From IMG/VR virus record IMGVR_UViG_2744054962_000004: 28,075 nt of DNA. One strand, 5' to 3'. The translations under genes were made by a program, and so were the position numbers. The stretch's first letter is position 1. Every line of letters starts with the position of its first letter. The notes below the pieces were generated by a model, which was not told the origin of the DNA, searched no databases, and saw only the letters and a program-made list of their open reading frames with translations. Source of the stretch: a virus (lineage: Duplodnaviria > Heunggongvirae > Uroviricota > Caudoviricetes). Of this stretch, positions 1,369-26,797 are shown piece by piece.

Positions 1369-1444
1369 GCCGATATAGCTCAGTTGGTAGAGCAGCGCAT
1401 TCGTAATGCGAAGGTCGTAGGTTCGACTCCTATTATCGGCACTC
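1369..1444 (+). tRNA. thrW: tRNA-Thr (anticodon CGU)
   Basis: 76-nt cloverleaf: GCCGATA acceptor stem, GCTCAGTTGGTAGAGC D-arm, anticodon loop TTCGTAA (anticodon CGT), GGTTCGACTCC T-arm, TATCGGC 3' acceptor strand. The last 3 nt read CTC instead of an encoded CCA (see findings). Confidence 0.92.
1409..1442 (+). repeat. left att core: 34-bp direct repeat within the 3' half of tRNA-Thr
   Basis: cgaaggtcgtaggttcgactcctattatcggcac is identical to 14987..15020; the copies diverge immediately outside. Confidence 0.85.
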
Positions 1445-2036: not shown

Positions 2037-2672
2037 ATGGCTGAGTATTATCCAGCGGTGTTTGAAGCAGAGGCTTTTAACTGTCCTCACTGTGGTGTTT
2101 ATGCCCGACAATTCTGGCGTAGGATGTATGGCTCTTCAAATGCGCTCCCTTCAAGAGGATCTGAGTTCCGAATGTCATCGTGCGCTCATTGTGATGAAGA
2201 CGCTTTTTGGTATCAGGGCAACATGTTGATCCCTGCGACTGGCAATGTTGAACTCCCAAATCCAGATATGCCCGATGACTGTAAGTCCGACTACATGGAA
2301 GCCAGAAGCATCATTAATCTGTCTCCTAAAGGGGCCGCTGCACTACTTCGTCTATGCCTTCAGAAGTTAATGGTCCACTTAGGCGAACCGGGGAATAACA
2401 TTAACGCTGACATCCGGTCACTCGTTCAGAAAGGACTACCTGTACGTATCCAGCAGGCAGCAGACATCTGCCGTATTGTCGGCAATCAGGCGGTCCATCC
2501 CGGAGAAATTAGCCTTGATGATGACCCGCAGTTGGCACATGGTCTCTTTAAGCTGCTGAACATTATTGTCACTGAGCAGATTACCAGACCCAAAGAGGTT
2601 GAAGAGATGTTCAATAGTATGCCTGAAAGGGCGTTGAAGGGTATTGAAAACAGAGATAAACCTAAAACTTAA
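2037..2672 (+). CDS. zinc-ribbon / DUF4145-like protein (candidate defence-associated cargo)
   Basis: 211-aa ORF with ATG start. N-terminal CPHCG...CAHC pair (CxxC-x-CxxC zinc ribbon). C-terminal region ...[37 protein letters not shown]... resembles the R-x-GN-x-aaH signature I associate with DUF4145. First gene inside the island. Confidence 0.55.
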
Positions 2673-2676
2673 AATG

Positions 2677-2692
2677 AGGGGCTTAAGCCCCT
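2677..2692. terminator. perfect 16-bp palindrome between convergent genes (bidirectional terminator candidate)
   Basis: AGGGGCTTAAGCCCCT lies in the 25-bp gap between the stop at 2670-2672 (plus-strand gene) and the stop at 2698-2700 (minus-strand gene); flanked by A/T-rich sequence. Confidence 0.5.
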
Positions 2693-2697
2693 TTAGC

Positions 2698-3486
2698 TTA
2701 TTCAGAAAACCAAATTTCTGGCCTTCTAAACTCCTTATTCTCAATAAAAAACAGAATATCTTTCCAGACTTCTTCATTTTCTTCCCAGAATTTTTGTTTT
2801 TCATTCATTGTAAGGACTTTACTATCATCTATTAACTTCTTGAGAATAGCAGGGATATCTTTATAGGGTTTTTTCCAGAAGGCATTACGAAATTCTTCAA
2901 TTTCAGCACTTGCATCCCGAACGGGTGTTAGAAGTTCAAGCTGTTTTTCTGTATCGGTAATAGGTTTATTTCCAACCCACTGATGATAGATTTGGCTAGC
3001 TTCTTCATGATGACCCCGAAGAATTGTTATTATTGTCTTTGAGAGTAACGAGCACATGTCAAAAGTAGTAAAGTAAAACCAATCGTGTTTGATTGCGGTT
3101 AATTCATCTTTCTTAACCCCTATTTGTTCAAGTTCACTCGAAATTGAAGATACTAATTTATAAAGATCTTTGTTTGATGTTGCTGTATCTAGGCGTCCGG
3201 TTCTGGAGGCTAATGAAATAGCTACTTCAGAAATAGGTAAGGAAACTTTTCTTAAACTCTCTAAAACTTTTTCAGCATCGTTAATAGTATCTCTTAATTT
3301 TGCCTCCATGCCTAAGAGCTTTATTTCATGCCATTCAAATTGAGTAAGCACCATCAACCCGAAGCCTGTTACAATGACAACAGTCCCTTCAGTTGCTCCT
3401 ATTGTCAGAGTTACAATTACACCAGCGCCTATAAGTAGCAATGCAATGAAAAACAAAAAATTCTTTATCCATTTATTTTTTAGCAT
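2698..3486 (-). CDS. membrane protein with two N-terminal TM helices and a ~200-aa soluble domain, function unknown
   Basis: 262-aa ORF with ATG start. Residues ~10-30 (FLFFIALLLIGAGVIVTLTI) and ~36-50 (VVIVTGFGLMVLTQF) are strongly hydrophobic. Markedly AT-rich compared with the proA-like core, suggesting foreign origin. Confidence 0.6.
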   Translation of the reverse strand: MLKNKWIKNFLFFIALLLIGAGVIVTLTIGATEGTVVIVTGFGLMVLTQFEWHEIKLLGMEAKLRDTINDAEKVLESLRKVSLPISEVAISLASRTGRLDTATSNKDLYKLVSSISSELEQIGVKKDELTAIKHDWFYFTTFDMCSLLSKTIITILRGHHEEASQIYHQWVGNKPITDTEKQLELLTPVRDASAEIEEFRNAFWKKPYKDIPAILKKLIDDSKVLTMNEKQKFWEENEEVWKDILFFIENKEFRRPEIWFSE

Positions 3487-3539
3487 ATCACTGTCACCAT
3501 TACGATTAAATTTGATCCAATATGAAGTAAAGTAAGTAA

Positions 3540-3749
3540 CTATTTTTCGTTCTCTGATGCCTCAAACGTCTTGGAGTGAGGGCAGGACTGTGAGCGCGTC
3601 ACCAGCGTGAACAGATAAATGTTGCTTTCGTAAGTGCAAAGCCGTTTTCCGCCCTGTAACTCTTGTTCGTCGGGGTTGCTCATGGTGATTTTTCCTGCAT
3701 GAGCCGCCAGCGGCAGCAGTGCCACAACAAATAGTAAAATTTTCTTCAT
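3540..3749 (-). CDS. small secreted protein (signal peptide MKKILLFVVALLPLAAHA), function unknown
   Basis: The track ORF 3540..3755 begins at GTG; the in-frame ATG at 3749 gives MKKILLF... with a classic signal peptide and an AHA-G cleavage context. Mature part ~50 aa with two Cys. Confidence 0.45.
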   Translation of the reverse strand: MKKILLFVVALLPLAAHAGKITMSNPDEQELQGGKRLCTYESNIYLFTLVTRSQSCPHSKTFEASENEK

Positions 3750-8030: not shown

Positions 8031-8363
8031 ATGAAAAACGTAAACGACATCCGCGCCGATATTCTCGCCGCAATGCAGGCCGCTGCCGAACCGGAGAGCG
8101 GAGATCTGAATAAAAGCGCCGAGCAGGTGTTGGCTGATGCCATCGAGGGATATCTGACCGCTTCGACTGCAACAGCCAGCAAATCAGCCCCGAAAGCAAA
8201 GACCATAAAGGAAAAAGGGATCGCTCTGTGCCACCAGGCCCAAGGTTATAGCGCTAATCTGCGTCCGGTAAGTCTCATGATGAAGGCAAGTCTTGATGAG
8301 CTAACACCTGAACAACGCGCCGCGCTTGAGCGTCTGGGTTACGATATCAATCAGGGGGTGTGA
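8031..8363 (+). CDS. hypothetical protein (110 aa)
   Basis: In-frame ATG at 8031 inside the GTG-initiated track ORF 7974..8363. Stop TGA 8361-8363 overlaps the start of the next gene (TGATG), suggesting translational coupling. Confidence 0.45.
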   Translation: MKNVNDIRADILAAMQAAAEPESGDLNKSAEQVLADAIEGYLTASTATASKSAPKAKTIKEKGIALCHQAQGYSANLRPVSLMMKASLDELTPEQRAALERLGYDINQGV

Positions 8364-10510
8364 TGTCTGGTAATATTATAGTTAGCACCCTAACAAACCG
8401 AGTGGTCTGGGATGTCGATCAGACAAGTTACGGCAAAGCCTTAAAGGCTGTTAAATCCATCAAAGCTGCTCACGAGAAGCCCGCTAAAGCGCTGGAGAAG
8501 GCCCAGAAGAGGACCGCTCAGATGGAAGGCAAGGCTTCACTAGCATCGGCTAAGGCTCAGACAGCGAAGCTCCGCCAGGCTGAACAATTGTCAAAACAGC
8601 AACAGAAACAAGCTCAGATACAAGCCAAAATGGAGCGGGACGCAATCGCCCACGCCAATAAAATGACCTCATTACAGGCTCGCCAGTTATCTCAGCAGGA
8701 GCAGGCAGCACGGCAGAATGCCCGTTTAGCAGCGATTTCTGCAAAAGTGCAGGCCGCAGCCAGATCACGAGCGATGACCTACAACCCAAACATGGGCGGT
8801 CAACATTACGATCCTGGTCTTGTTTCCCGCCAGACTGACGCAATGAACCGTGGTCACGGCGCTGTTGCTGCCGACATTGCAGCCACTAAAAGGGCTATGG
8901 CCTTAGAAGAAAAGCGCCAGCGTGAGAAAGAGGCCAGTCTTAAACGCCAGAGCACTGCATACGATACTCTGCGCCGTGCCAGTTTAACTATCAGTCATAT
9001 CGAAGGCGCTAGCCTGGCTGACAAGATGAAAGCTGTGCAGGCAATCAAAGAGGCTACCAAGGGATACTCCGAGCAGCGTTACACCATCGCAGAAATGCGC
9101 CATGAACTTGCTAAAGCGACTCTGGAAACCAGGCGGCAGGCACGTATTAACCGCCAGATTGTTAAAGATAAAGCGAAAGCCAAGCGAGCAGGGCGCATCA
9201 ATGCTCAACGTCTGACCAGTGAACGTAGCGAACGTGGTTATGGTGGCCTCGCTGCTACTGGTGTAATTGCAGGTGGTTCCCTGATTGGCTCAATGGGGGT
9301 TGCTCGTGTTGGTCAGACACTACAGGGCAGTGTTGAACGCAACCAACAGATGAAGGCTTTACAGTCTCAAGGCATCTCACGTCTTGAATATGAAGCTGTG
9401 CGCGATGTTGTCGCCAACAAAACCGGCTTTAATATTTCTCCAGACAAAGCCCTTGATTTTTCTGCTGACTATAACGACAAAGTGGGCCAGTTGACGGCTA
9501 ACGGAACATGGAAGACCAACAAAAACGGTCAATCAACGTTGTCCGGTGGTGGTGAACTTGGTGACCTTATCAACGCTATTGCAGGCAAATCCAACGTTGC
9601 CACGGCAAAGCGCGTTGTTAAAGAACTCCAGGGTATCGACTTTAATCTCTTCCTTGTGTACCTCAAGCAATTGCAGAAGACTTTTAAGTTCACGGATAAA
9701 GAAACAGCCGCTTTTGCAGAAGCGATCAACGACGCAAGCAAGATCCTTCCGGCATTTGCTGATGGTGGTGAAGCTGTTCAGAAACGTATGGATGACCTCG
9801 CCCGGAATGGTTACGCCCTGAGCGAAGCACAACAGGAACAGCTAAACCGCCTAAGCGCTCTCTCTGTTGAATATTCAAGGATCAACGATTCGTTGAGTGA
9901 TATTTTCAGCTCAGGTTTTGCTGATGGGTTGGGAGAGGTTGGCAAGAACACTTCCAGCTTTAGCAAAGGTATGGCTGGCCTCGTTCCTATTATGGATAGT
10001 TTGGGGAAGGCTGTAGGCCAGGTGACTGCTGATATGTTGTTATTTGCCGGACGGGTGGGCCAACGTGTTAACGAGGGTGCAACACTTCCGGATGCAGTCT
10101 ACAACACCGTTGTGGATGATTCCGCAAACGGTGCTGCCGATTGGATTAAGGAAAAGACCGGCTTTGATCCACGTAGCATCGGTCAGACGCTTAAGCAGAT
10201 TTACCCGTGGCTAGATAGTTCAGCACCAAGCAATATCGGCTCAGGCACAGCGTATAACGATCCAGCGCTAGCGTTGAATGTTCCAGGTCTAAACTATCAA
10301 ACACCCCAGCAACCAACGTTTACGGTTCCGACAATTGATAGCATAGTTCAGCGACAGCCGATTCCTGTTGCGGTCACTGGCGAAGCTGAGATTAAACTCT
10401 CACCGCTTGATATTAACGTGAATGACGGCGCTATTAACGGTTTGATTGATACAAAACTGAGGAGCTATGAGCAGGCACAGAACAACATGATCCTTGGTAT
10501 TGCTCAATGA
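8363..10510 (+). CDS. large coiled-coil protein with Gly-rich hydrophobic segment (tape-measure-like or scaffold-like phage structural protein)
   Basis: 715 aa from ATG 8363, SD AGGGGG. N-terminal ~300 aa are K/A/Q/R-rich heptad-like sequence. Central GGLAATGVIAGGSLIGSMGV hydrophobic Gly-zipper. N-terminus and architecture parallel the 613-aa protein of island 2 (24151..25992). No Walker A motif. Confidence 0.6.
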   Translation: MSGNIIVSTLTNRVVWDVDQTSYGKALKAVKSIKAAHEKPAKALEKAQKRTAQMEGKASLASAKAQTAKLRQAEQLSKQQQKQAQIQAKMERDAIAHANKMTSLQARQLSQQEQAARQNARLAAISAKVQAAARSRAMTYNPNMGGQHYDPGLVSRQTDAMNRGHGAVAADIAATKRAMALEEKRQREKEASLKRQSTAYDTLRRASLTISHIEGASLADKMKAVQAIKEATKGYSEQRYTIAEMRHELAKATLETRRQARINRQIVKDKAKAKRAGRINAQRLTSERSERGYGGLAATGVIAGGSLIGSMGVARVGQTLQGSVERNQQMKALQSQGISRLEYEAVRDVVANKTGFNISPDKALDFSADYNDKVGQLTANGTWKTNKNGQSTLSGGGELGDLINAIAGKSNVATAKRVVKELQGIDFNLFLVYLKQLQKTFKFTDKETAAFAEAINDASKILPAFADGGEAVQKRMDDLARNGYALSEAQQEQLNRLSALSVEYSRINDSLSDIFSSGFADGLGEVGKNTSSFSKGMAGLVPIMDSLGKAVGQVTADMLLFAGRVGQRVNEGATLPDAVYNTVVDDSANGAADWIKEKTGFDPRSIGQTLKQIYPWLDSSAPSNIGSGTAYNDPALALNVPGLNYQTPQQPTFTVPTIDSIVQRQPIPVAVTGEAEIKLSPLDINVNDGAINGLIDTKLRSYEQAQNNMILGIAQ

Positions 10511-11438: not shown

Positions 11439-12473
11439 ATGGGACTATCAACCAATTTCAGCTACGCGGATTACACCAATACCTTTGTTAACATGGATGC
11501 AAAGAACACTTTGCTGTCCACGCTTAATGTTTTCAATGATCGACAGACTTCGGCTAGTCCAAAGGTCAGCCTTGATATCATTGATGAAGTAGCCCAGAAG
11601 GTGGCAAGCTCTGTTAATCGTTACGGCTCTGAGTGGTCCAGCATTCCTAAGCGTAGCTCTAGCAATCACCTTATCGAAGCTCCGCTTTATGCTTATCAGG
11701 ACCGTATTACAGCGGCAGACGTGCAACCATACCGCAAACCAGGTTCCGACCTGCAAATGTCTGTAATGGATGCGGTCACTTCTTCTGCTGTCGCAATGCA
11801 CGATAAGTACATGCGTACCCGTGAGCGGATTTTTGCTGATGCGCTTTTTCGTAATACCGTCGAAGCGACCTACACCCAGCAGCCAATCATTTCCTGGGAA
11901 GATGAATTTGGATACCAACAGGCAACCGGGACAATCAAAACCAGCGTTAGCTCTGGTGACCCACTTCGCAGCCTCGATGATGCAGTAACCGCTGCTAAAG
12001 TGCGCATGGGGGGCCTGGCTGGTCAGCTTGATGGATTTATCCTGTTTGCAGGTAGCAATGTTTATCGCGGCATTAAGTATCACCCTGATGTTCGTCAGAA
12101 TGTTCAGTTCGGTGTGCTTGATCGGGATGTTCTGTTTAATAAAGAAGTGCTTCCGGCATTCTCAACATTCATCATTGAAAATGTTCGAGTGGTGGAGGTC
12201 ACGGATCAGGCACTATACGGAATTGGTCCGGATGAATCCTTCCTGGTTCCACGCTTTAGCAAACCGCTGTCTTCGGATATTGCTCTGCCCTTCGGTTATG
12301 TGGCAACGGCTACCAGCCGCAATCTTGATCTGGCATTTGCTGATCCGGTTGATTTCCGTATCTGGAGCGTACAAGACAAGTTTAAGAACGTTGAGCTATT
12401 CGCGGAAAGCTCTATCTTGCCTGTTGTGTACCGCCCGGATTTCACTACACGACTGACGAACGACGCAGCGTAA
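11439..12473 (+). CDS. phage-structural-like protein, ~344 aa (major-capsid-E-like or major-tail-like)
   Basis: ATG start with SD AAGGAG 8 nt upstream. N-terminal region is similar to the island 2 343-aa protein (STNFSY...NTLLSTLNVFND vs STYFGV...NTLITNLDLFDV). Size and pairing with the upstream small gene mirror the lambda D/E arrangement, but fold not verified. Confidence 0.5.
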   Translation: MGLSTNFSYADYTNTFVNMDAKNTLLSTLNVFNDRQTSASPKVSLDIIDEVAQKVASSVNRYGSEWSSIPKRSSSNHLIEAPLYAYQDRITAADVQPYRKPGSDLQMSVMDAVTSSAVAMHDKYMRTRERIFADALFRNTVEATYTQQPIISWEDEFGYQQATGTIKTSVSSGDPLRSLDDAVTAAKVRMGGLAGQLDGFILFAGSNVYRGIKYHPDVRQNVQFGVLDRDVLFNKEVLPAFSTFIIENVRVVEVTDQALYGIGPDESFLVPRFSKPLSSDIALPFGYVATATSRNLDLAFADPVDFRIWSVQDKFKNVELFAESSILPVVYRPDFTTRLTNDAA

Positions 12474-13106: not shown

Positions 13107-13685
13107 ATGGATGATGTGTTACAACCTGACCTTCAGATTCTTCCCCTAAATCATTTCCATAACCACAAACGTTTCAGCAGTGGTTCAGAAGAATTCCAAC
13201 CTCTTAAATCTTTTCTTCAGAAAGATGCTTTATTATTTCAAGATGGTTGTATAGCTCAAACTTATGTTGTTGTTGATGACAACATGCGGAAGGATAAAGA
13301 AGAGCCTCTCGAAACATTCCCTCATAAAGTATTAGGTTATATAACGCTGACTTGCAGCCAAGTTAACCTTAAAGAATATGACTTAGGGGACTGTGTTCGT
13401 GCAAATACGTATGAGTACTTACCTGCCGTCAAGATTGCCCGTTTAGCTGTGGATGCAAAGTGTCGGACTGGCGGGATCGGTTCAATGCTGTTCGAATACG
13501 CCTTATTAATGTCATTGGATGATATTCGCCCTATGGTTGGGTGCAGGTTCTTGATAACCGATGCTAAGAGAAGTGCCATGGATTTTTATTATAAAAAAGG
13601 GATGGAGCTTCTTGATACGCAAGAAAATCAAGAGGCTGACCACCCCATAATGTTCATCGATCTTTTCACATTACTTGAAAACTGA
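13107..13685 (+). CDS. GNAT-family acetyltransferase, candidate GNAT-type toxin (TacT/AtaT-like)
   Basis: 192-aa ORF. ...LPAVKIARLAVDAKCRTGGIGSMLFEYAL... matches the GNAT acetyl-CoA-binding motif A (R-x-x-G-x-G after a beta strand). Preceded by a small ORF in toxin-antitoxin-like order. 3' end overlaps the integrase 3' end by 20 bp (convergent). Confidence 0.6.
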   Translation: MDDVLQPDLQILPLNHFHNHKRFSSGSEEFQPLKSFLQKDALLFQDGCIAQTYVVVDDNMRKDKEEPLETFPHKVLGYITLTCSQVNLKEYDLGDCVRANTYEYLPAVKIARLAVDAKCRTGGIGSMLFEYALLMSLDDIRPMVGCRFLITDAKRSAMDFYYKKGMELLDTQENQEADHPIMFIDLFTLLEN

Positions 13686-14871
13686 TCATCTCCACATACC
13701 CCGATAGCTCCCTCATCCCCGCGCCAGCGCTGTACGTTCTGAAACTCTCCGTTTTGCCTCGCTCATGGCCCACGATTAGGGCGATCCTGTCTTCTGGTAC
13801 ACCATGCCGATCAAGCTGGCTGATAAACATTCCTCGCAGACTATGAAACACCTTCCGCTCCGTGCCTTTCTCACCCAACGCTTTACGTTTAGCCCGTGTA
13901 AATCGCTGTGTATGCCACGTTGAGCGCTTGCCGTCTGCACGTTCGGTGATGCTGGCATGGTAGAACAGAAAGCCGTTGTGGTTGTTCTGGATGAGGTTTT
14001 TAATCAGTTTCGTCAATCGGCTATGAATTGGAACCAGGCGAGCCGCATTGCGTGTCTTACCCTCCGTCACATCGAAACACCATACCCCCTCAACGGTTTT
14101 GATATTGCTGATTTGCAGAGAGCAGATTTCGTTAAGGCGCATACCGCTATACATTCCCACTATCGCAACGGCTTTCATCTCTTCATCAAGCATCGCATAC
14201 ACCTTAGCCAGTTCGTCACCGCTAAAGGGTTCGTAGCTTTCTCGATCATGGCGCACGTCCAGTTTGTGGCCCGTGAATACATTGGCTTTCGGTGCGTCGT
14301 GATAGCGGTTTTGGGCTTGTGCCACTAGTTGGGACAGACAGCCAAGATAATTCGCCAGTGTCTGGCTGGCTTTCTCCTGCTTGGCGCTGTCTAACCAATC
14401 GGTGACCATAGTCCTGTTGATTTCCTGCAACTGGAAATCCTTACGCCGGAAATGAGCCGTGAAGACCTCCACCGCCTTAATGTACTTGCTCAGGGTAGAC
14501 AGCTTGCGCCTGTCACTGTGTTGGACAATAAATTCATCCCGCAGTTGAACAAGGGAGGGACACACACGAGCCGTGGCGAAGTCTATCCCATTATTTTGGC
14601 TTACATGCTGGTTGATAGAGCGCAGTTCCACCAGGACGCGATCGACACTGTTACGTTGGGGTTTTGGCTTGAGTCGGTCTCTGATAGCAAAAAATTCGTG
14701 CATGACTTTGTCACGAATGATTCGGGCTTCCCTGATATCTGCCGTGCCAGTTGTACGCATGAATGCTGTTCGATTCCCAAAAAGGGAACGCATATAAGGC
14801 GGAATAGTGACCTTGACGGAGTACACCGAAGAGTTTTCTTTAACAAGGTACGCATTAGGCTTGTATTTCAT
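13666..14871 (-). CDS. tyrosine recombinase / phage integrase (island 1)
   Basis: 401-aa ORF with ATG start. Box I region ...GMRLNEI..., then ...KVFHSLR..., ...GHERGKTESFRTY... consistent with the R...HxxR...Y catalytic signature. Sits next to the att repeat and shares a 49-aa identical block with the island 2 integrase. Confidence 0.9.
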   Translation of the reverse strand: MKYKPNAYLVKENSSVYSVKVTIPPYMRSLFGNRTAFMRTTGTADIREARIIRDKVMHEFFAIRDRLKPKPQRNSVDRVLVELRSINQHVSQNNGIDFATARVCPSLVQLRDEFIVQHSDRRKLSTLSKYIKAVEVFTAHFRRKDFQLQEINRTMVTDWLDSAKQEKASQTLANYLGCLSQLVAQAQNRYHDAPKANVFTGHKLDVRHDRESYEPFSGDELAKVYAMLDEEMKAVAIVGMYSGMRLNEICSLQISNIKTVEGVWCFDVTEGKTRNAARLVPIHSRLTKLIKNLIQNNHNGFLFYHASITERADGKRSTWHTQRFTRAKRKALGEKGTERKVFHSLRGMFISQLDRHGVPEDRIALIVGHERGKTESFRTYSAGAGMRELSGYVEMISFQVM

Positions 14872-14986: not shown

Positions 14987-15022
14987 CGAAGGTCGTAGGT
15001 TCGACTCCTATTATCGGCACCA
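14987..15022 (+). repeat. junction att core: displaced 3' fragment of tRNA-Thr (with CCA) between island 1 and island 2
   Basis: cgaaggtcgtaggttcgactcctattatcggcacCA: identical to tRNA positions 41-74, followed by an intact CCA end; no 5' half present, so not a functional tRNA. Confidence 0.85.
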
Positions 15023-15628
15023 TCAAGAAAATCAATAACTTAGCTTAACTTCTCTAAGAAATTGTATCTTCTGTTATCACTTACAAACGCCTATACGTTG
15101 TTATGGGCTTTGGTAGTGTAACACGTATGGGCGAGTAGTTCCCAGGCTCAACCTCGTAACAAGTTCCTTTGAAGCTGGAAGACGTGCCACCGTCTCTAAA
15201 CCTTCTACCAAAACTCTTAGCAAGATGTTCCACACCTGGCGCGGTGTCCAATGATGCTACACGTCGTGAGACGTTGCAGAGGATAAACAGGCTAAATGAT
15301 GGGAAGAGTTTTAAGTGCAATAGTGGATCAAAGCCCACCTCTTCAAAACCTAACTTGATCGGGAAAGAATCAAGCTCTAGCACGGTTTCGTCCACCGGAG
15401 TACAACGGGTGCCTGATAAGAGAAGAACTGCTAAGACTTCATAGCTTTTGTGAAAAAGCCCTTTTTAGTGGATACGCCTACGGCGCTTATTTTTTGGTAT
15501 AACCATCAAAGGCGCTTTATGGCTCCTATTGTCTTGAAAATGTATCTTTACTTGTATTGTGTTTTATGCGTAGTCTCCCTGTGTAGTATGTAACTTGTTA
15601 ATTTTCATATGAATACAGAGGCAACACG

Positions 15629-15781
15629 ATGAAAAATATTGCAGCTATCAAACGTAATAACCGCAAGATTCACGCTCGTAAGTTCCTGTCTACGCCAGAA
15701 GGAAAAGCCTGGCTAGAGCGTAAACAGAGAGAGAACGAAGAAAGAAAACTCCTTAGTGAGTTGAAATGGCTTAAGGATTGA
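15629..15781 (+). CDS. small basic protein (50 aa), function unknown
   Basis: ATG 15629 with SD GAGG 7 nt upstream, stop TGA 15779-15781; absent from the ORF track because it is under 60 aa. MKNIAAIKRNNRKIHARKF... is highly basic. Confidence 0.4.
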   Translation: MKNIAAIKRNNRKIHARKFLSTPEGKAWLERKQRENEERKLLSELKWLKD

Positions 15782-15791
15782 ATCACCAGTA

Positions 15792-15833
15792 GGCGCATAA
15801 CACATCCAGCGATCAAAGATGTGTTTATGCGCC
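15792..15833. other. long near-perfect hairpin (15-bp stem) between convergent mini-ORFs
   Basis: GGCGCATAACACATC (15792-15806) pairs with GATGTGTTTATGCGCC (15818-15833) with one bulge and an 11-nt loop; no U-tract on either side. Confidence 0.5.
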
Positions 15834-15847
15834 TGATAGTGAAATTA

Positions 15848-16006
15848 TTAAAGTCGTTTAGTTAACATCGCCATTGCTTGAGCAATAATTGCAACAGCGT
15901 CCATCTCTTCACTGGAAGCGATGCAAATGCGGTAACTAATAGCCACAATGAATACATCAATAACGAGAAAGTGAATAGTGTGAAGATGTTTTGAAAGTAA
16001 ATGCAT
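15848..16006 (-). CDS. small hydrophobic protein (52 aa), function unknown
   Basis: ATG at 16006 with strong SD GGAGG and 5-nt spacer; my reverse-strand translation is MHLLSKHLHTIHFLVIDVFIVAISYRICIASSEEMDAVAIIAQAMAMLTKRL. In a different frame from the TTG-initiated track ORF 15862..16071. Confidence 0.4.
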   Translation of the reverse strand: MHLLSKHLHTIHFLVIDVFIVAISYRICIASSEEMDAVAIIAQAMAMLTKRL

Positions 16007-16400
16007 AACTTCCTCCGGTTTTGGGATAGGAGGATTAGAACATGCATTAAATGATGTTGCAAGAATGGCAATTTACCCTAATAGTCTACTATTCACCTCA
16101 ATCTACGTCAACCAATATTTGATGTAGATTTAATTTTCTTTTAAAAACAATATGTTGTTATTTGTTGAATTTTGGGGTTAGGTTGTTTTTTGAACGTTTT
16201 CATCAAGTGTAAAGATACGTTTAGCCTTCATAGTGAGTTCAGTTACTGTCTTTTTCTCTGAAATCGGCGCAAACGTGATCATCGCTTGAGGTTGCTGCTC
16301 TTACTTCTCAAATTGTGATGGAGAACGATAAAGGTTAGAGGGCACTTTTATTTTTTTAAGCAAGTGTATAGCATAAGAATAATCTAAAAAGGGAGGTTAT

Positions 16401-16952
16401 ATGCGCAGGTCTGCATTTGTGAGGATGATGATTTTTACAACGTTGTTTGTAGGGGGAACTTCTACCGCAGTTGCTAAAAACTGCAAAAAAGGAATACCTT
16501 GTGGTAACTCGTGTATAGCTGTTGGTAAGACGTGCCGGATTGGCTCTTATGCCCCTTCATCTTATAAAAATCATTCATACTCTTATCCTTCATCCTCTAT
16601 TCGAAGCTCGCAATCAAATAATTCACGAAAAACTGAAGGAGTGAAAACGACTCCTGCTGCCAAAAATTATCTTTGCCAATACTCTATTGCATCAATCGAA
16701 AACGGACGTTTAGGGGCATTACGTGTTCAGGGATACGCACAAGTAACTTTATATGCAGATAGCTTCAAGGCTAACAGATTAAATGGAACATATTTGATAT
16801 CGCCAAAACTGAATGCTAACGGCAAGTTTATGATGGCAGATGATAAAAGCAAGGTTTATGCTTATGATTCTTGGCTATTAAATTTTGCAATAAGCGATCG
16901 TATCACAAGAACGACAGAACAATGGGATCGATGTAAGCTCAATCAAAAATAA
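16401..16952 (+). CDS. secreted Cys-rich protein (signal peptide), function unknown
   Basis: 183-aa ORF with ATG start and SD GGGAGG. N-terminal signal peptide (MRRSAFVRMMIFTTLFVGGTSTAVA) followed by CKKGIPCGNSCIAVGKTC cysteine cluster and a Ser/Tyr-rich linker. AT-rich. Confidence 0.55.
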   Translation: MRRSAFVRMMIFTTLFVGGTSTAVAKNCKKGIPCGNSCIAVGKTCRIGSYAPSSYKNHSYSYPSSSIRSSQSNNSRKTEGVKTTPAAKNYLCQYSIASIENGRLGALRVQGYAQVTLYADSFKANRLNGTYLISPKLNANGKFMMADDKSKVYAYDSWLLNFAISDRITRTTEQWDRCKLNQK

Positions 16953-18080
16953 CAGTTAGAGAAGCTCTTGTAGAGGCATTATTGAGTTATTGGTTTTAAT
17001 ATTTTTGTGCCTCTATGGGCTTTTTTTGCCTTTTTGCAATGTAGAAGAGAGCACAGGAATCGTTAAAATTAATTATTGGGGTATTTAAGGTTATTTTCAG
17101 GTGATTTAAGGGTATTAAACGTAATTTAAGTGATTAAAATATAAACAGGTTGTTCTGTATCTTATTGATTTATAAGGTTGTTTTCAAATAAAGGTAAATA
17201 AAAAATAAATAGCCATAAATAGCTATAAATACATCTAAATACATATGAATCCCCTCCCTTATGGCTAGATTGCGAGAGGTGCTTAACGCGATTTTCAGCG
17301 CCCCCCGATCTGGAAAATCCAGAATCCCCAAATATCAGCAAGGAATTTTCTTGCGTAATCAACATCGTTTTTACCTATTAAATCATTACACAGAAAGCCT
17401 TTCTGTAATGTCTCTCACTAAACTTTCACTAAACACGAGAATGATCGGTTTTATGTCGGATCAGATGCTAGAAACAGCACCACGTCTCACAAGGGCTGTA
17501 AGCGATGAAACCAGTGTTTATGCGGGTGCAGGTCAAAATATAGGCCAAAATACATTTAACATAATAATCGTAATATGCACTAAGGAACACATAGAACGCC
17601 TTGAGTTGATGTATCAGGGGAAAAATGGTGTATTTTTTACGTAGGAGCACGAGAGGGCTTCTATTGACTTTTGTATGCTATGAAATATAATAGAAGATTT
17701 TTTATTTTTATGTTGATAGTGATTGCACATTAAAGATTGAAAGCAAATTTAAACATAAATTTTCAACACGTGAAAGAACTTGTTCAACAAATGATAGAAC
17801 GTTTATTGAGCAACAATTTTGCAGTGATGCGCTATATGCCGCATAACATAAGGCTTTGCTGATGATGACGCAAAAGTGAAGAAAGTAAGAATTGCATTTT
17901 GAAGCCATTTTTCTTGGATTTTTTAGTATGGAATTACACAGGGATTAATCATCAATTAATCTTGAATTTAAGCTTGTTTTAGATGTTTAATTTTTGATAG
18001 CAAGAAAGACTTTTACTGATTATAAGAAGATCATTGCACAGATGTTATGTGATGGATGTAACGGTAGGTCACTGTGAGCT

Positions 18081-18217
18081 ACCCCCACAGAATTCTGTTA
18101 TCCTTAACTTTTAAAGAAATATGCACCCTAACAGAAAACTGTTACCCCAACCCTAACAGAATTATGTTAGACACCCCCACAGAAAACTGTTAGCCACCCC
18201 TACAGAATTTTGTTACC
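18081..18217. repeat. five iteron-like direct repeats (~22-23 bp), candidate replication origin or operator array
   Basis: acccccacagaattctgttatcc (18081), accctaacagaaaactgttacccc (18125), ccctaacagaattatgttag (18151), acccccacagaaaactgttagcc (18172), acccctacagaattttgttacc (18195). Consensus CCCYMACAGAAWWNTGTTA with internal dyad ACAGAA..TCTGT; four copies are tandem at ~23-bp spacing. Confidence 0.7.
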
Positions 18218-18908
18218 TATTAGATCAACTATCAAACTACAATTAAATTATCTTTTATAAATTCTTTTATCTTTAAAGAATAATTATAGGGATACCCGTT
18301 AGGGAGTCTTCGACTATCCCTTAATCTATTGGCATTCGCCAGAACCTTGCACAAGTTAGAGTGTTAGTCAGTTAGACTGATACTTCTCATAACACATAGT
18401 TTTTGTTTGTTAATGTTAGTTAGTAGATCTATGTTCGCTTTCCGCTCACAACGAATATGTAATCTACTATGTGCAAATAGCCTACGGCTTGCGTAAGGCT
18501 AAATAGTCTTGCGCTGTGCGCAGAACGATAATTAACTAACTACCATCTAACGATCATCAATCATCTAAAATAAATTTCTTGTGCAATGTTCTTGCGAATG
18601 CAATTAGGGTAGCGTTACCCCTTTGGGGATGCTAACGCATAACTATAGATCAACCATCAAACAGACAAAAAAGAAAAATATGGTTTAAAGATGTTAGGTA
18701 GTAGATGAGTTTCTACCGCTTAAATCAAACCGTAGGCGAGCTAAACAGCCATTACATAAGGGAATGTATTGTTTTTATCAAAACCTCGTTAGAACGCGTT
18801 TTAGAGCGTTTTAGACAATAATGAAGAATTGGAGTATTCGTAAGAGCACGAATTGCTAAGAAAAATCATAACACACTGAAAATGATCAATATTTTTATGG
18901 CTGGGGGG

Positions 18909-18937
18909 TTGACAAAAGCCTTTAGTCGTGGTAAAGT
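18909..18937 (+). promoter_or_regulatory. sigma70-like promoter for the island 2 rightward operon
   Basis: TTGACA (18909-18914), 17-bp spacer, TAAAGT (18932-18937), about 120 bp upstream of the first ATG (19059). Confidence 0.4.
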
Positions 18938-19058
18938 AATATTAGGGGCAGGAAAACATTCTTATCCTTTAAATAATTAAACCAATGCATCGCACTTTGA
19001 AGCCCAAGGCTTGCAAGGTGTCTATTTCTTTTAACTAAATAGAATAGGAGGTTAATTA

Positions 19059-19259
19059 ATGAAATATTTCACTCCACAGGATATTGTGGAAGCCTGGAAA
19101 CGTGGTGAGATCAACCGTTTTAAAGTAAGGATGAACAGGAACACAGCGCGACGCTGTGGTTATCCAGAGCGTGAAAAATGCTTTGACGATGCACTAAAAA
19201 TTATTGATGAATTAAGAAAAAATGAAAAAGGATCTGAAAAAGAATCTGAAACAGAGTAA
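19059..19259 (+). CDS. small hypothetical protein (66 aa)
   Basis: ATG with SD AGGAGG 7 nt upstream; charged, helical-looking; no recognisable motif. Confidence 0.45.
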   Translation: MKYFTPQDIVEAWKRGEINRFKVRMNRNTARRCGYPEREKCFDDALKIIDELRKNEKGSEKESETE

Positions 19260-19278
19260 AGAAGAGAAGGAGAAAACT

Positions 19279-19449
19279 ATGAGCGAAACTACAGAAAAGA
19301 AAAGGCAACCACGCACTTGCTTTCATATTCCTGATGAAGTATTTCAGGTGTTGTTTAAAGAAGCCAGAAGTAAACGTATCACTGTTACAGATTACATTCT
19401 TGATATGTTGAAAAGAGAGGCTGAAACACTCTCAAACAAAAGCAAGTGA
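19279..19449 (+). CDS. ribbon-helix-helix-like DNA-binding protein (56 aa)
   Basis: ATG 19279 with SD AAGGAG 6 nt upstream (preferred over the upstream ATG 19222, which overlaps the previous gene). ...RTCFHIPDEVFQVLFKEARSKRITVTDYILDMLKRE... has the strand-helix-helix pattern of Arc/CopG-type proteins. Confidence 0.5.
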   Translation: MSETTEKKRQPRTCFHIPDEVFQVLFKEARSKRITVTDYILDMLKREAETLSNKSK

Positions 19450-19502
19450 TTTTTATCACCATAGTAGCGCCGTAGAGCGTGATTACATCAAGGAGATTTT
19501 TA

Positions 19503-20072
19503 ATGATTAATGAAGAACAATTTGTAAAAGTTCCTATGTGGATTCTAAAAATAAGCCAAGTAAACGGGCATAAATTTACAGATAGTGCTAAAAACCTTTA
19601 CTGCTATCTGAGAGGGTTTGATCGTGCATTTCCCTCTTACGCTAAGATAGGCGATGTTTTTGGCATAACACCAAGAGCAGCAGAAGAAAGGGTTAAGAAA
19701 TTGCTCGAAATGGGATTAATTATAAAAGATGCACGACCAGGAAGCTCTAACCTTTATCGAGTGCTTGATATTCCAAAAGGAGAATCATCACTACCTGATC
19801 CTTCTGAGAAAGAAGACGAATCTAATGAAATATTGAATGTTTCCGAAATCATCGTTGAAGAAGAAACACAAGAGCCAGAGTTCCCTGAGCGGCCCGAAAT
19901 TTTTACTTGGCTTCTTTCCCTTGATAAGAAGAAACCACCGCACGAAGAAACAGAAGATTTTGTAAAACGAGCATTAGATTCAAAGAATATCTATCTTTGT
20001 GAAAATGATTTTGACTCTTTGATAATTGATCTCAAAAGTGAGAGCACAATATATGATTCACTACCCTTTTAA
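19503..20072 (+). CDS. putative replication initiator / winged-helix DNA-binding protein with acidic C-terminal tail
   Basis: ATG 19503 with SD AGGAGA 6 nt upstream (track ORF starts at GTG 19479). ...YAKIGDVFGITPRAAEERVKKLLEMGLIIKDARPGSSNLYRVL... HTH plus wing. Acidic tail (EKEDESNEILNVSEIIVEEETQEPEFPE). Counterpart of island 1 gene 6576..7376. Confidence 0.55.
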   Translation: MINEEQFVKVPMWILKISQVNGHKFTDSAKNLYCYLRGFDRAFPSYAKIGDVFGITPRAAEERVKKLLEMGLIIKDARPGSSNLYRVLDIPKGESSLPDPSEKEDESNEILNVSEIIVEEETQEPEFPERPEIFTWLLSLDKKKPPHEETEDFVKRALDSKNIYLCENDFDSLIIDLKSESTIYDSLPF

Positions 20073-20206
20073 GGAAATAAATGATTTATAACATCACAAA
20101 CAATCAGTAACAACAGATCGGGCAATACATATGGCAAGTGCATTTGTAGCAATATTCATCGTAACTATGGCATTCAGTTTTTATAATCCACATAAAAAGA
20201 GGGAAA

Positions 20207-20587
20207 ATGGGAAGAAAGAAAAAGAACAACTTAAAACGTATTGAGCAAGGGAACACCTTCAACGACGTAAGAAAGCAAGTTTATAAGAATAATGAAGAAG
20301 CAGGTGAAGAGATAGTCTTCATTTTAGAATCTAACAGCCCACCACTTACAAACGAAGAATTAGAAATTATTCAATCAATGGGTGATGGTGTGTATTTCAA
20401 ACCCAGAACAAGAAAGACAACGATTATAGAACCTGGCACATTGAAGAAATGGCAATTGTTAGGCTTTACCTCATTTCGTCACTATACAGGCTTCAATTCG
20501 TTCAACAATCAGGTAGGCGGCGTTACAGAAACAGATCTGATGCAGCACCTGATCGACACTCTCGCATCTAACAAACGTTCTAACTAA
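20207..20587 (+). CDS. hypothetical protein (126 aa) with basic N-terminus
   Basis: ATG start, SD-like AAGAGGGA upstream; MGRKKKNNLKR... N-terminus. Confidence 0.45.
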   Translation: MGRKKKNNLKRIEQGNTFNDVRKQVYKNNEEAGEEIVFILESNSPPLTNEELEIIQSMGDGVYFKPRTRKTTIIEPGTLKKWQLLGFTSFRHYTGFNSFNNQVGGVTETDLMQHLIDTLASNKRSN

Positions 20588-20602
20588 TAGAAAGACGGGC
20601 GT

Positions 20603-20848
20603 ATGTATAAGCGCCCAATGAAAATATTCGAAAAAGGAAAAATAATGATTGGCTATATTCAAGAAACACAATTATTTCAGATGCTCCTGTCTGATGCAAA
20701 AAACTATGCTGAGTTAATCCGGCTGGCAAAAGAAACAGAAGACTACGAAGCATTAGAACGTTACCGTGATGAAGTGCTGACGCTCAAGACACCTTTTAAC
20801 ATCGTATTGAATATGATTAATGATGCATTACAAGGAGAATACGCATAA
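20603..20848 (+). CDS. small hypothetical protein (81 aa; alternative starts at 20618 or 20645)
   Basis: ORF with three in-frame ATGs; the one at 20645 has the best SD (AAAGGAAA). Stop overlaps the next start (ATAATG at 20846-20850). Confidence 0.4.
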   Translation: MYKRPMKIFEKGKIMIGYIQETQLFQMLLSDAKNYAELIRLAKETEDYEALERYRDEVLTLKTPFNIVLNMINDALQGEYA

Positions 20849-21150
20849 TGGAAGAAGATATTAGCAATGCAATGGAACAACTTTTAGATCTGACTATCTC
20901 ACTACAAACAAGAATAAATCAAGCCTATTCAGATTTATGCGATTATACGCTCTCTCAATGCGTTATTAGCTTAATGAAGCTCAATGTATGCTTAGAAGAT
21001 TTTGTCTCTCTGGTGAGCGATTTAGAGCTATCAGATGCCAAGATGTGCACTCAAACCATCACAGACACCGCCAGCACGTTAAAGGCTGCAAGTGAAGAGA
21101 TTCAGCAATTAGTAAATGATTTAGCAAAAAGTGCTATTTTCTCTAAATGA
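20848..21150 (+). CDS. hypothetical protein (100 aa)
   Basis: ATG with SD AAGGAGAA 8 nt upstream; start overlaps the upstream stop (translational coupling); predicted helical. Confidence 0.45.
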   Translation: MEEDISNAMEQLLDLTISLQTRINQAYSDLCDYTLSQCVISLMKLNVCLEDFVSLVSDLELSDAKMCTQTITDTASTLKAASEEIQQLVNDLAKSAIFSK

Positions 21151-22057
21151 TAATGAAAATCATTTGCATTTATGATGATTTTGTTATATAATAATTTTAG
21201 GGGTAGATTAAAAGATTTTAGTTGGTGTTAATCCTTCTACTGTCATAAATCCCTGCATATGGAAGGTGATAGCCTCAAAGGTTGAGTGGCATTAACCTCT
21301 AACAAATATTACCTTCCATCTATCAAGAAGTTTTAGAATAATCATAACTCCCTCTTTGATTGTTGATTGTTTCTACGTTGTGTTGATGAATGTTGTTAGG
21401 CATTGTGCTTAATTTTTGATAAAAGCGGGTAGGTGTTATCTCCTTGCCCTTCCCGCTCTTATTTTTCATCTATGCTTATCCTAAAGCTCCTTATTTTGTC
21501 CGAAAACATTAAAGAGCCTTACACTGATAGTTATATTTTATAACTATTTACTAACATCATTAAACTCTTATTTAATGACGGAAGTTAGTAACAGAATAAT
21601 CTATTAAGTTGTTGTCAAAAAACTATCATCTGCATAGCGTTAGCCGCAAGTAGAGAGAGTTTAGCTAAGAATGGTGCAATAAACTTTGGAAATATTGATA
21701 GCAAAACGGGTTTTATAGAATGCGGATCTATAATCTTTGGTTGTGAAACGATTTTCTGAAACGGTAGATTACTGTTGGTGTAGTTAATCCTTATTAAAAA
21801 TTTAATCTGTGAGTAGATTGGAATAGTGATTCCTTAAAATCTGACTGGTGCATCCACACCATGAAAGATAGCGGTTAGCCACCGCGCCCCGAATAGATAT
21901 TCCTGATTGATTCCGCATGTTTTCTTAAGAGCATGTTTTCAGGAGTATCTATTCACCCTTTAAGCATATCATCAAGTATATTTAAAAAGTGTATTTGCTG
22001 ATATGTTTAATCCTCTTATAGTTTAACTTATCAATTATGTAATTGCCCGCACGTTAA

Positions 22058-22104
22058 AGCCCCTTTGCTGGTCAGAACCTCTTACGGCATTGGGGCTTTT
22101 TATT
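22058..22104 (+). terminator. candidate intrinsic terminator / attenuator upstream of the structural-like operon
   Basis: AGCCCC ... GGGGCT inverted repeat with a long (28-nt) loop followed by TTTTTATTT. Confidence 0.35.
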
Positions 22105-22131
22105 TGTCTGGCACTAACAGGAACGTTATTT

Positions 22132-22329
22132 ATGAAACAAGAAATGATTATCAGCAAAGACGGGGAAACGATGATTGTTAGTGATGAAAACCTCATTAAG
22201 GTTGCCGCACTGTTGGGAGTTACTCCCGAAAGTCTTCGTTCTACCACTGCTCAATTATTTAAATCGGCTGATGCGGTTAGTCTTGCTGATGCCCTTAAAT
22301 CTAAAATTAAACAACTGAAAGGAAAATAA
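22132..22329 (+). CDS. small hypothetical protein (65 aa)
   Basis: In-frame ATG at 22132 inside the TTG-initiated track ORF 22090..22329; sits immediately upstream of the small/large structural pair. Confidence 0.4.
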   Translation: MKQEMIISKDGETMIVSDENLIKVAALLGVTPESLRSTTAQLFKSADAVSLADALKSKIKQLKGK

Positions 22330-22333
22330 TCTT

Positions 22334-22717
22334 ATGGCTAACCCATATGGAAAATTAAAAGCAGTGAATGCGGATAATTCCCGTTCACGCTGTAAGGTAG
22401 TAGCTTACGCTGCTGATCCAGTGCTGCAAGATCGCCTCGTCAAACTGGCTTCACCTCTCACTGACGATCTTATTGTCGGGGCTTTGCTGAAAGCCGATGG
22501 CACCAAAGCAACAACCGCTTCTGATATTGCTCACGTAGTGGTTGAACCGGCTTATGAAGGACAGGAAAGCGTAGTGGTTGCACATCCTACTTTCGTTATT
22601 CTGGCTGAAGATGGGATTGAATTTAACAGTATGGAAAAGGCAAGTGTTATTGCAAAACTGCAATCTCTCGGCTTTGTAATTGCTGGTTATGAAGAACTTG
22701 CGATCCCTACGACTTAA
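22334..22717 (+). CDS. small phage-structural-like protein (head-decoration-like or tail-terminator-like)
   Basis: 127-aa ORF with ATG start, directly followed (14-bp gap) by the 343-aa protein; positional counterpart of island 1 gene 11079..11420. Confidence 0.45.
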   Translation: MANPYGKLKAVNADNSRSRCKVVAYAADPVLQDRLVKLASPLTDDLIVGALLKADGTKATTASDIAHVVVEPAYEGQESVVVAHPTFVILAEDGIEFNSMEKASVIAKLQSLGFVIAGYEELAIPTT

Positions 22718-22731
22718 CAAGGAAAATAATA

Positions 22732-23763
22732 ATGAATGATTTATCAACATATTTTGGCGTTAATACTGCGGTAGTAACTCCATTTGCTTATGAGAATGCA
22801 CTTAATACCCTGATTACTAATCTCGATCTGTTCGATGTGCAATATCATACAGAAAACAGCATTCTTCTTACCGACCTGATTGATCAGTTTGTGCAGGTAG
22901 CTGGGGAAACCTCGCCTTACGCTCAAAGCGACTGGAACGCCTCTAAACGTCAGGAATGGTCAAACAAACTTTTCCAGATGAAACACGTCGGCAGTATTAA
23001 CGCTGTTACTTCTCGTGACCTGGAACAATACAGCCGCCAATATCCAAACCGTTCTGATGCTATGCTGGTAGCGGTTAATGATTTCTCTGAGGCACATTAC
23101 CGTTCACACGCAAACCGTGTTGAAGTGGATCTGATTACCGCGCTGCTGGGCCTGAAAGTTGAATCTGAATATGCCGGACAAGGTGATCTCGACTTCCTCG
23201 ACGGTCAGGCTAAAACCACGGTACCCGCTATCGACTTTGCATCGACTACTGTTAACCCGTTCCTTGCTATTCGTAAAGCGGTGCGCTTACAGAGTGAAAA
23301 GCTGGGGTCTGGTCTTGCTGCAAAGCGAACTGGTGTAATTATCTTTGCTGCTGGCGCTGCTGCTGATGGTTTGTCATCTAACCCGCTGATCAGTGACATG
23401 GTGAAATATGCAGGTGATGCGAGTGCTACGGCCCTGTTTACCCGTATGGTTGATTCTAACCCAGCCTATGACTCTTTCCAGATTGGTGGGATCACTGTTA
23501 TTGATGTGTCAATGTTTCCTGAGATTGTTGCTCACATCGGAGAGAACGGTTTCGCAATTGTTCCAGTAATGGATAAAGCGGCACAGTGCTATCAGCTTCA
23601 TAGCGGCGTTGGTGTGCGTCATGCTGAGTTAGGTCAAGATGCCGTGTTACATCACCAATATCTAATCAAGGATGAATTCCAATTCCCATCTGTGGTTACT
23701 GAGACATCTTATCTGCCAGTAAACAACATTCCGCAAGCTATCATCTTCGGATCTGCTGCGTAA
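22732..23763 (+). CDS. phage-structural-like protein, 343 aa (major-capsid-E-like or major-tail-like)
   Basis: ATG start. N-terminal similarity to island 1 protein 11439..12473; same size. Fold not verified. Confidence 0.5.
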   Translation: MNDLSTYFGVNTAVVTPFAYENALNTLITNLDLFDVQYHTENSILLTDLIDQFVQVAGETSPYAQSDWNASKRQEWSNKLFQMKHVGSINAVTSRDLEQYSRQYPNRSDAMLVAVNDFSEAHYRSHANRVEVDLITALLGLKVESEYAGQGDLDFLDGQAKTTVPAIDFASTTVNPFLAIRKAVRLQSEKLGSGLAAKRTGVIIFAAGAAADGLSSNPLISDMVKYAGDASATALFTRMVDSNPAYDSFQIGGITVIDVSMFPEIVAHIGENGFAIVPVMDKAAQCYQLHSGVGVRHAELGQDAVLHHQYLIKDEFQFPSVVTETSYLPVNNIPQAIIFGSAA

Positions 23764-23918
23764 TAAAGCGTTAATAGACGATTCCCCATCGTCTGGAAAT
23801 AATCGGGGCAATAAGGGTAAGGGATAATCATATAAGCAAAATATGCGCTGTCTCTTGCCCTTATTTTTTTTCTACTGTCTACAAACCCAAATAAAAATAT
23901 ATATGTGAGAGAAAACCA

Positions 23919-24116
23919 ATGAACGCAGAAAATTCACAGGCATTAATTCTTAAATCTGTAAAAGAACTGGCAGCTATTAGCGAGGAATCAGTTATAAACA
24001 CATCGGCGCTTTGCCGCCTTTTAGAAATTGATGCAAATAATGTGCGTCAGCGTGTCTTTCAGACTGGATGCAGCACTTTCGAAGCAATTCAATACTATTG
24101 CTCTAAAAAACAATAA
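23919..24116 (+). CDS. small hypothetical protein (65 aa)
   Basis: ATG start; lies between the 343-aa protein and the large coiled-coil protein, where a siphovirus tail module would have a tape-measure chaperone (positional analogy only). Confidence 0.4.
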   Translation: MNAENSQALILKSVKELAAISEESVINTSALCRLLEIDANNVRQRVFQTGCSTFEAIQYYCSKKQ

Positions 24117-24150
24117 TAAACAACAATCATAATACAGGGAAACAATTAGC

Positions 24151-25992: not shown

Positions 25993-26039
25993 TCATCACT
26001 GTGGGGCTGTTTAGCCCCCTTAAATAAGGATTACAAATT

Positions 26040-26717: not shown

Positions 26718-26757
26718 CCTTAAACGCCTATGAAACGCTCTGTAACGAGATAATCAT

Positions 26758-26790
26758 AAAAGAGGCATCAATCTATATTGAAGCCTCTTT
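26758..26790. terminator. hairpin between convergent genes 26040..26717 and integrase 2
   Basis: AAAGAGGC (26758-26765) pairs with GCCTCTTT (26783-26790) around a 17-nt loop, with T/A-rich flanks on both sides; lies just before the integrase stop at 26798-26800. Confidence 0.5.
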
Positions 26791-26797
26791 ATTACGT

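Follow-up and report, generated by a model that had tools for sequence, protein, structure and literature searches.

A two-helix membrane protein from a satellite-like element at thrW: a candidate stand-alone anti-phage gene

Does a membrane-protein gene that abuts a known defence gene act together with that neighbour, or does it work on its own? And if it works on its own, could it be a defence gene in its own right? These questions arise at positions 2698..3486 (minus strand) of a 28,075-nucleotide stretch of DNA from a virus of the Caudoviricetes (IMG/VR record IMGVR_UViG_2744054962_000004), which we refer to as the window. The gene encodes a 262-amino-acid protein with two transmembrane (TM) helices, here called the 2TM protein, and converges on the gene for PD-T7-4/RAZR (2037..2672, plus strand), a zinc-finger and DUF4145/HEPN RNase that we treat as context. 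The original prediction, made from the DNA alone, offered two readings of the 2TM gene: an independent single-gene system, or the effector half of a two-gene module with the gene at 2037..2672. The first fits all of the context evidence presented below, namely the autonomy of the gene, its defence neighbours and the mobile slots that it occupies, while its anti-phage role is the part that we infer. From this context we propose the 2TM protein as a candidate stand-alone, abortive-infection-type anti-phage membrane protein, a reading to which we give a probability of roughly 45%.

A membrane hairpin joined to a conserved helical domain

The longest reading frame at the locus starts with ATG, encodes 262 amino acids and corresponds to RefSeq entry WP_061092834.1, where it is labelled 'hypothetical protein'; a full-text literature search with the accession WP_061092834 gave no match. 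Close relatives carry a 10-codon N-terminal extension, MKFNRNGDSD, and the matching start codon in the window (3514-3516) reads ATC. Distant homologues begin at the same methionine as the 262-residue form, so this methionine is probably the true start across the whole family. Pairwise ratios of nonsynonymous to synonymous substitution rates (dN/dS) between the gene and its homologues range from 0.14 to 0.29, which indicates that it is protein-coding and under purifying selection.

Hydrophobicity is confined to the N-terminus. Kyte-Doolittle windows of 19 residues exceed 1.6 only at start positions 5-29, that is, in the first ~48 residues. An AlphaFold2 model, built with an alignment of 95 diverse homologues, reaches a mean predicted local distance difference test score (pLDDT) of 93.9 and a predicted template modelling score (pTM) of 0.75; the two N-terminal helices span residues 5-28 and 31-49 in it, and the remainder is entirely helical. 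Hydropathy and model thus agree with the two N-terminal TM helices first proposed for this protein, and together with conservation they delimit a predicted TM hairpin with a very short periplasmic turn (3340..3474, minus strand). Three lysines (K3, K5 and K8) precede the first TM helix, and the family consensus FKxFKG follows the second. From these charges we deduce an N-in/C-in topology, which would leave ~200 residues in the cytoplasm and only ~2-5 facing the periplasm.

The predicted cytoplasmic domain, residues 59-262 (2701..3312, minus strand), is all-helical and carries most of the positions conserved in the family: G59, E61, A62, A71, R95, G97, R98, L119 and D143, and further towards the C-terminus E229, D243, R254, R255 and W259. 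Small residues are also conserved within the TM helices (G22 and G41). No histidine, cysteine or serine is conserved in the family, the conserved residues being mainly glycine, alanine, arginine, aspartate, glutamate and tryptophan. Structural comparison of the model returned generic helical bundles only, with no specific relative, and the earlier remark that this ~200-residue domain shows no recognisable motif still holds after library searches, none of which gave a consistent match. Given a generic helical fold without an enzyme signature, the membrane hairpin is the only evident effector element. Some family members exchange the hairpin for another N-terminus; P0113, for example, combines a zinc ribbon with one TM helix.

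How widespread is the protein? A word-indexed search gave only 14 enterobacterial relatives, and a further profile search, saturated by word-sharing candidates, added two members. An exhaustive HMMER profile search, in contrast, retrieved 584 cluster representatives at E <= 1e-3 and 202 at E <= 1e-10; clusters were formed at 50% identity, so that the family comprises at least 584 of them. Nearly all representatives measure 255-280 amino acids and match end to end, and full-length homologues range from 17 to 96% identity. The named sources include E. coli, Klebsiella, Enterobacter, Cronobacter, Raoultella, Pantoea, Shewanella and Paucimonas, in all of which the protein is annotated 'hypothetical', and more members come from marine and peat metagenomes. 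Pfam, NCBIfam, PHROGs and PADLOC yielded scattered noise for the protein from the window (its sole match in PADLOC-DB v2.0.0 was Cas6b, E = 0.007), as did Pfam, PADLOC and PHROGs for 95 diverse members, without any consistent family. The best hit of a sequence-profile search of the PDB was spurious (E 0.02). Searches by tblastn found no match to the window protein or to member P0016 among 50,697 phage records, nor to the window protein among plasmid records. As judged by sequence, the 2TM protein is a member of a large, previously undescribed family with no known relative.

A mobile gene with changing neighbours

The 2TM gene is present in 22 of 5426 complete E. coli genomes, and all 22 copies are identical. 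Its G+C content (GC) is 0.347, compared with 0.473 for the convergent RAZR gene, 0.486 for the small gene upstream and 0.467 for the whole island; the early impression of a foreign gene far more AT-rich than its neighbours (34.7% vs ~47% GC around it) is therefore accurate. At every Enterobacterales locus examined, the GC of the homologue lies 11-22 points under that of its flanks. Rarity and GC deficit mark the gene as accessory, patchy and horizontally moved, and its mobility is also apparent from the element that carries it, which is bounded by attachment sites (att), and from the swapping of slots described below.

What stays constant around the gene? At three loci (L010, L011 and L021) the 2TM gene is kept, with ~91% DNA identity and conserved flanks, while the slot of RAZR is filled by an unrelated gene of 171 codons. 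An all-against-all BLASTP comparison of the genes within 3.5 kb of the 2TM member at 23 loci found no gene family common to divergent contexts, though the greedy open reading frame (ORF) caller used for it probably missed a 198-codon gene common to L027 and L028 that was seen by eye. Because the 2TM gene stays recognisably the same amid changing neighbours, and because no neighbour family recurs across divergent loci, it behaves as a self-contained single-gene unit, autonomous from its surroundings. The 198-residue protein has one N-terminal TM helix, is encoded directly upstream of the 2TM member at these two betaproteobacterial-type loci (L027 5363-5959, L028 3419-4012) and has no Pfam or PADLOC match; it may be a partner specific to a betaproteobacterial subfamily.

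We grouped the loci into 21 independent contexts, and the counts that follow depend on that grouping. In 7 of the 21, the 2TM member is no more than three genes away from a known defence gene or a domain associated with defence: RAZR in the window, Abi_alpha in Raoultella (L007), Kiwa KwaA/KwaB together with a caspase in Paucimonas (L028), a SIR2-STAND-TPR protein (L036), a TIR protein (L039), DRT8 (L046; E = 1.4e-125), and DUF4238 with Abi_alpha (L063). A weak TIR-like effector match in L038 would add an eighth. The binomial probability of at least seven such contexts is ~1e-7 if the background is 2%, the proportion of E. coli genes that lie within +/-10 genes of a known defence gene (preprint 10.1101/2025.01.08.631726), and ~3e-3 at a generous background of 10%. 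The family is thus found near known defence genes above background, in 7-8 of 21 contexts of a small and non-systematic sample; for that reason we take the association as good circumstantial evidence and not as proof.

The contexts also point to mobile cargo sites. Four of them (L022, L034, L023/L024 and L062) are P2-like prophages in which the 2TM member occupies the slot between tail genes S and V; the others include satellite or integrase-adjacent cargo positions. In L062 (5986-7864) the S-V slot holds a 2TM member and, on the opposite strand, a gene for a 251-residue membrane protein, which resembles P2 Orf30 in size, strand and membrane character. The S-V slot of P2-like prophages can stack accessory genes.

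Proposed mechanism and alternative explanations

How might such a protein act? We propose that the 2TM gene moves horizontally as a single-gene cassette, carried as cargo at the integrase-distal end of a satellite-like element, and that it would share with RAZR nothing but a terminator. The cytoplasmic helical domain, with its cluster of conserved arginine and aspartate residues, would sense either a product of the phage or a change that infection brings about. Association of the hairpins, with their conserved small residues, would then make the inner membrane leaky, the membrane potential would collapse, and the infected cell would be stopped before phage release, which amounts to abortive infection. 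Defence function, sensing by the cytoplasmic domain and membrane permeabilisation are each steps that we infer. More tentatively still, the protein might be the first one recognised in a widespread family of immune proteins that act singly, in which a new helical cytoplasmic sensor fold is combined with a killing or arresting hairpin, needs neither partner enzyme nor signalling molecule, and is traded as a one-gene cassette by P2-like phages, satellites and chromosomal defence islands.

Could the protein depend on a neighbour after all? That it is the membrane effector of RAZR, or is otherwise coupled to it, is suggested by the window itself, where the two genes are adjacent and have a terminator hairpin in common. 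Every copy of the exact 2TM protein that was read adjoins a DUF4145 gene, the pair recurs with a 74%-identical 2TM homologue in L014-L017, and the Klebsiella member P0004 has the same arrangement, its frameshifted 2TM C-terminus running into the antisense of the DUF4145 gene. The identity of the neighbour argues against this coupling. The 211-residue protein matches PD-T7-4 in PADLOC (E = 6.4e-102 over residues 1-209) and DUF4145 in Pfam (1.1e-13), and the catalytic residues R146 and H154 are both present in the window copy. PD-T7-4 has been renamed RAZR, a zinc-finger and HEPN RNase activated by ring-shaped phage proteins (PMC13017515); it is itself the RNase effector and, alone under its native promoter, protects against T3, T7, SECphi18 and SECphi27 (PMC13017515). 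RAZR usually follows or overlaps an integrase gene (Vassallo et al., PMC9519451), and at the two RAZR loci that we inspected an integrase gene precedes RAZR and the 2TM gene is missing. Of the 5426 E. coli genomes, 324 have RAZR-like DNA and 22 the 2TM gene, and each gene is found at loci that lack the other. Homologues of the 2TM gene adjoin instead the 171-codon gene, a 244-codon gene, Abi_alpha, a UDG-family gene or P2 tail genes. Convergent orientation rules out co-transcription, and one satellite lineage carrying both genes, to which all of these pairs belong, accounts for the co-occurrence. The self-sufficiency of RAZR, the unequal counts and the exchange of its slot leave the two-gene module of the original prediction unsupported: no partner is needed, the two genes do not as a rule co-occur across genomes and lineages, and we regard coupling as extremely improbable. 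The other adjacent gene, directly upstream and co-directional (3540..3749, minus strand), encodes a 69-residue protein (phrog_4641, E = 2e-8) with two cysteines and an apparently cleavable signal peptide (...LAAHA|GK), and it occurs with and without the 2TM gene. A two-gene operon, in which this periplasmic factor and the 2TM protein act together, would be in keeping with the spacing of 53 bp, with the lack of a promoter-like site between the genes, and with the adjacency of the pair in the window, L010, L014 and L018, which persists although the 2TM proteins are as little as 59% identical. Other loci speak against it. In L002 the two genes are 5 kb apart, the 69-codon gene belonging to another element on the far side of an integrase; in L008 the UDG-family gene takes its place; the position upstream of the 2TM gene lacks it in L002, L007 and L008; and the neighbours at all more distant loci yielded no homologue. 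Its GC of 0.486 is backbone-like, unlike that of the 2TM gene. The 69-codon gene may be co-transcribed with the 2TM gene, it is not an obligate partner, and joint action of the two seems very unlikely.

A protein that works alone need not be a defence protein, and several observations weigh against the anti-phage role. Thirteen of the 21 contexts lack a known defence neighbour, and the sample of contexts is small, opportunistic and partly biased, loci on viral contigs being phage-derived by construction. In the P2-like prophage L022 the 2TM gene begins 12 nt past tail gene S on the same strand, a spacing that suggests late lytic co-transcription and would be unusual for a defence gene expressed in the lysogen; it is the chief difficulty for that reading. 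Across the 95 members PADLOC gave two unrelated single matches and no consistent model, and a promoter scan upstream of the gene in the window found nothing convincing. The cytoplasmic helical bundle, for its part, could equally be a scaffold or a regulator. The lack of defence neighbours in these contexts, the apparent late-operon embedding in L022 and the absence of a PADLOC match would all suit an accessory gene without any anti-phage role, be it a membrane-stress or fitness factor, a regulator of lysis timing or assembly, or a factor by which a satellite interferes with its helper. The family is, however, common to satellites, to P2-like phages that are their potential helpers and to chromosomal defence islands in distant taxa, a spread that is hard to square with a function confined to the life cycle of any single element. 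A holin would be much smaller and encoded among the lysis genes, while in L022 and L062 the lysis cassette, with holin and lysozyme genes, lies separately upstream. We therefore think a role outside defence somewhat unlikely, yet it deserves to be kept in view. The same prophage slot could also be read in favour of a gentler kind of protection, since a late-operon position in P2-like phages would suit exclusion during the lytic cycle, and an inner-membrane protein encoded by prophages and satellites might block entry of the phage genome at the inner membrane without killing the lysogen or satellite-bearing cell, like T4 Imm, P22 SieA and HK97 gp15. Against such superinfection exclusion stands the architecture of the protein: its conserved part is the 200-residue cytoplasmic domain, and almost none of it would face the periplasm, which makes exclusion at entry less likely. 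In addition, some members (such as P0113) replace the hairpin by other N-termini, and the family also occurs in defence islands outside prophages. Non-abortive exclusion is accordingly an unlikely explanation in our estimate.

The candidate reading, a stand-alone membrane protein of the abortive-infection type, can be set beside systems of similar design. In SieB of lambda and P22 an N-terminal region spans the membrane and the C-terminal part is cytoplasmic. The 2TM gene resembles this prophage-encoded abortive exclusion gene (PF14163) in architecture only, being likewise a single gene on a mobile element whose product joins N-terminal TM helices to a cytoplasmic part; the 2TM protein exceeds SieB by ~80 residues, however, and forms a distinct helical bundle in its cytoplasmic domain. 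Homology to SieB was rejected, as an hhalign comparison with lambda SieB gave a probability of 0.17% and none of 95 members matched PF14163. TM helices are also combined with cytoplasmic domains in Cap14/Cap15 of CBASS, in PycTM of Pycsar, in SLATT-domain proteins and in the TM type of Thoeris ThsA, which are thought to kill via membrane disruption. The 2TM protein has this general layout in common with the CBASS, Pycsar, SLATT and type II Thoeris effectors. Such effectors depend on an enzyme encoded nearby that makes the signal, whereas the 2TM gene has no recurrent cyclase or other partner. Membership in these groups was not borne out either, for Pfam and PADLOC gave no SLATT, SAVED or Macro match and a TIR protein lies two genes away in L039 only.

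P2 Orf30, a nonessential membrane protein of 261 residues, is close to the 2TM protein in length and lies, in P2 itself, in the S-V slot that family members occupy in the four P2-like contexts. The two proteins differ in TM layout, their genes are oppositely oriented, and they are not homologous (hhalign probability 0.65%). RAZR is, like the 2TM gene, single-gene cargo of integrase-bearing elements; unlike the 2TM protein it is soluble and unrelated in sequence, with a much wider and largely non-overlapping distribution. The 2TM protein does not fit the description of a class II holin (<150 amino acids, two TM helices, next to an endolysin gene), since it has 262 residues with a 200-residue cytoplasmic domain, and the lysis genes of the P2-like prophages are elsewhere. 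Another system, Rst_2TM_1TM_TIR, was reportedly found in P2/P4 hotspots by Rousset et al. in 2022. Its gene order recalls that of L039 (424-2342), where the 2TM member is followed by a 162-residue single-TM protein and then by a 157-residue TIR protein with a C-terminal TM tail. No L039 protein matches a PADLOC Rst model, however, and the arrangement was seen in only one of the 21 contexts.

If the 2TM protein is protective, it would represent a compact one-gene membrane immunity module. Because its family has hundreds of divergent members, a fold predicted with confidence and no known relatives, it would lend itself well to studying how sensing in the cytoplasm is linked to disruption of the membrane. 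Two sites would then be worth mining for other systems, the integrase-distal end of these capsid-encoding thrW satellites and the S-V slot of P2-like phages. If it is not protective, a tempting mis-pairing with RAZR has still been corrected, and the cargo slots of this satellite are seen to exchange genes independently. In either case the family is new among mobile-element-borne, membrane-anchored immunity candidates, of which specialists already face many.

A probable shared terminator, the host element and its surroundings

Does the DNA between the two convergent genes serve both of them? The stop codon of the DUF4145 gene ends at 2672 and that of the 2TM gene occupies 2698-2700, leaving a gap of 25 bp (2673-2697). 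Sequence scanning and folding located in it the perfect 16-nt palindrome AGGGGCTTAAGCCCCT (2677..2692, not assigned to a strand), so that the coordinates bear out the initial description of a 25-bp gap spanned by such a palindrome. It is the only perfect 16-nt palindrome in the window. By a naive estimate 0.43 are expected per window, and it is therefore the placement between two stop codons that carries weight, not the existence of the repeat. The stem is G+C-rich, folding energies are -12.1 and -11.0 kcal/mol on the two strands, and U-rich tracts follow on both. Placement, stem and tails fit a modest bidirectional intrinsic terminator shared by RAZR and the 2TM gene.

The window opens with proA and thrW, the gene for tRNA-Thr(CGT). 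The 3' end of the tRNA gene forms attL (1409..1442, plus strand), and a perfect direct repeat of its last 34 nt forms attR at 14987..15020 (plus strand). These sites bound an element of 13.6 kb, whose integrase gene (13666..14871, minus strand) lies beside the right-hand repeat, opposite the RAZR and 2TM cargo; RAZR and the 2TM gene are the first genes inside the left, integrase-distal end. The element also encodes a DUF6945 gene, a GNAT gene and a 716-residue ORF (8360-10510) without domain match. A major capsid gene of the lambda gpE type lies at 11439-12473, and no other head gene was recognised in the element. With att boundaries, an integrase, a capsid gene and this further gene content, the element looks like a phage satellite. 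The 171-codon gene that replaces RAZR elsewhere (L010 8874-9386, L021 6840-7355) is found in L014 (9490-9930) between RAZR and the integrase gene; it has no Pfam or PADLOC match and may be another exchangeable cargo or defence candidate.

A second AT-rich integrative element (GC 0.32-0.42) follows in tandem at window positions 15021-28075, with its integrase at 26798-28075 (minus strand). It encodes a LexA-family regulator, a flotillin-family protein (24151-25992) and a 'phage baseplate protein' (26040-26717). The DefensePredictor preprint counts a phage-baseplate-protein domain among newly validated defence domains, a name that the product of the gene at 26040-26717 also bears. A 343-residue ORF of the second element (22732-23763) is a distant full-length homologue of the capsid protein of the first (24% identity, E = 1e-16), from which it appears that thrW holds two divergent satellites of one family.

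The locus L021 comes from a record titled Chryseobacterium sp. 18061 (CACSKA010000001.1). Its proA-thrW region is 79% identical to that of the E. coli window and its 2TM protein is 90% identical to the one studied here; the record is probably a mislabelled or mixed-culture enterobacterial assembly.

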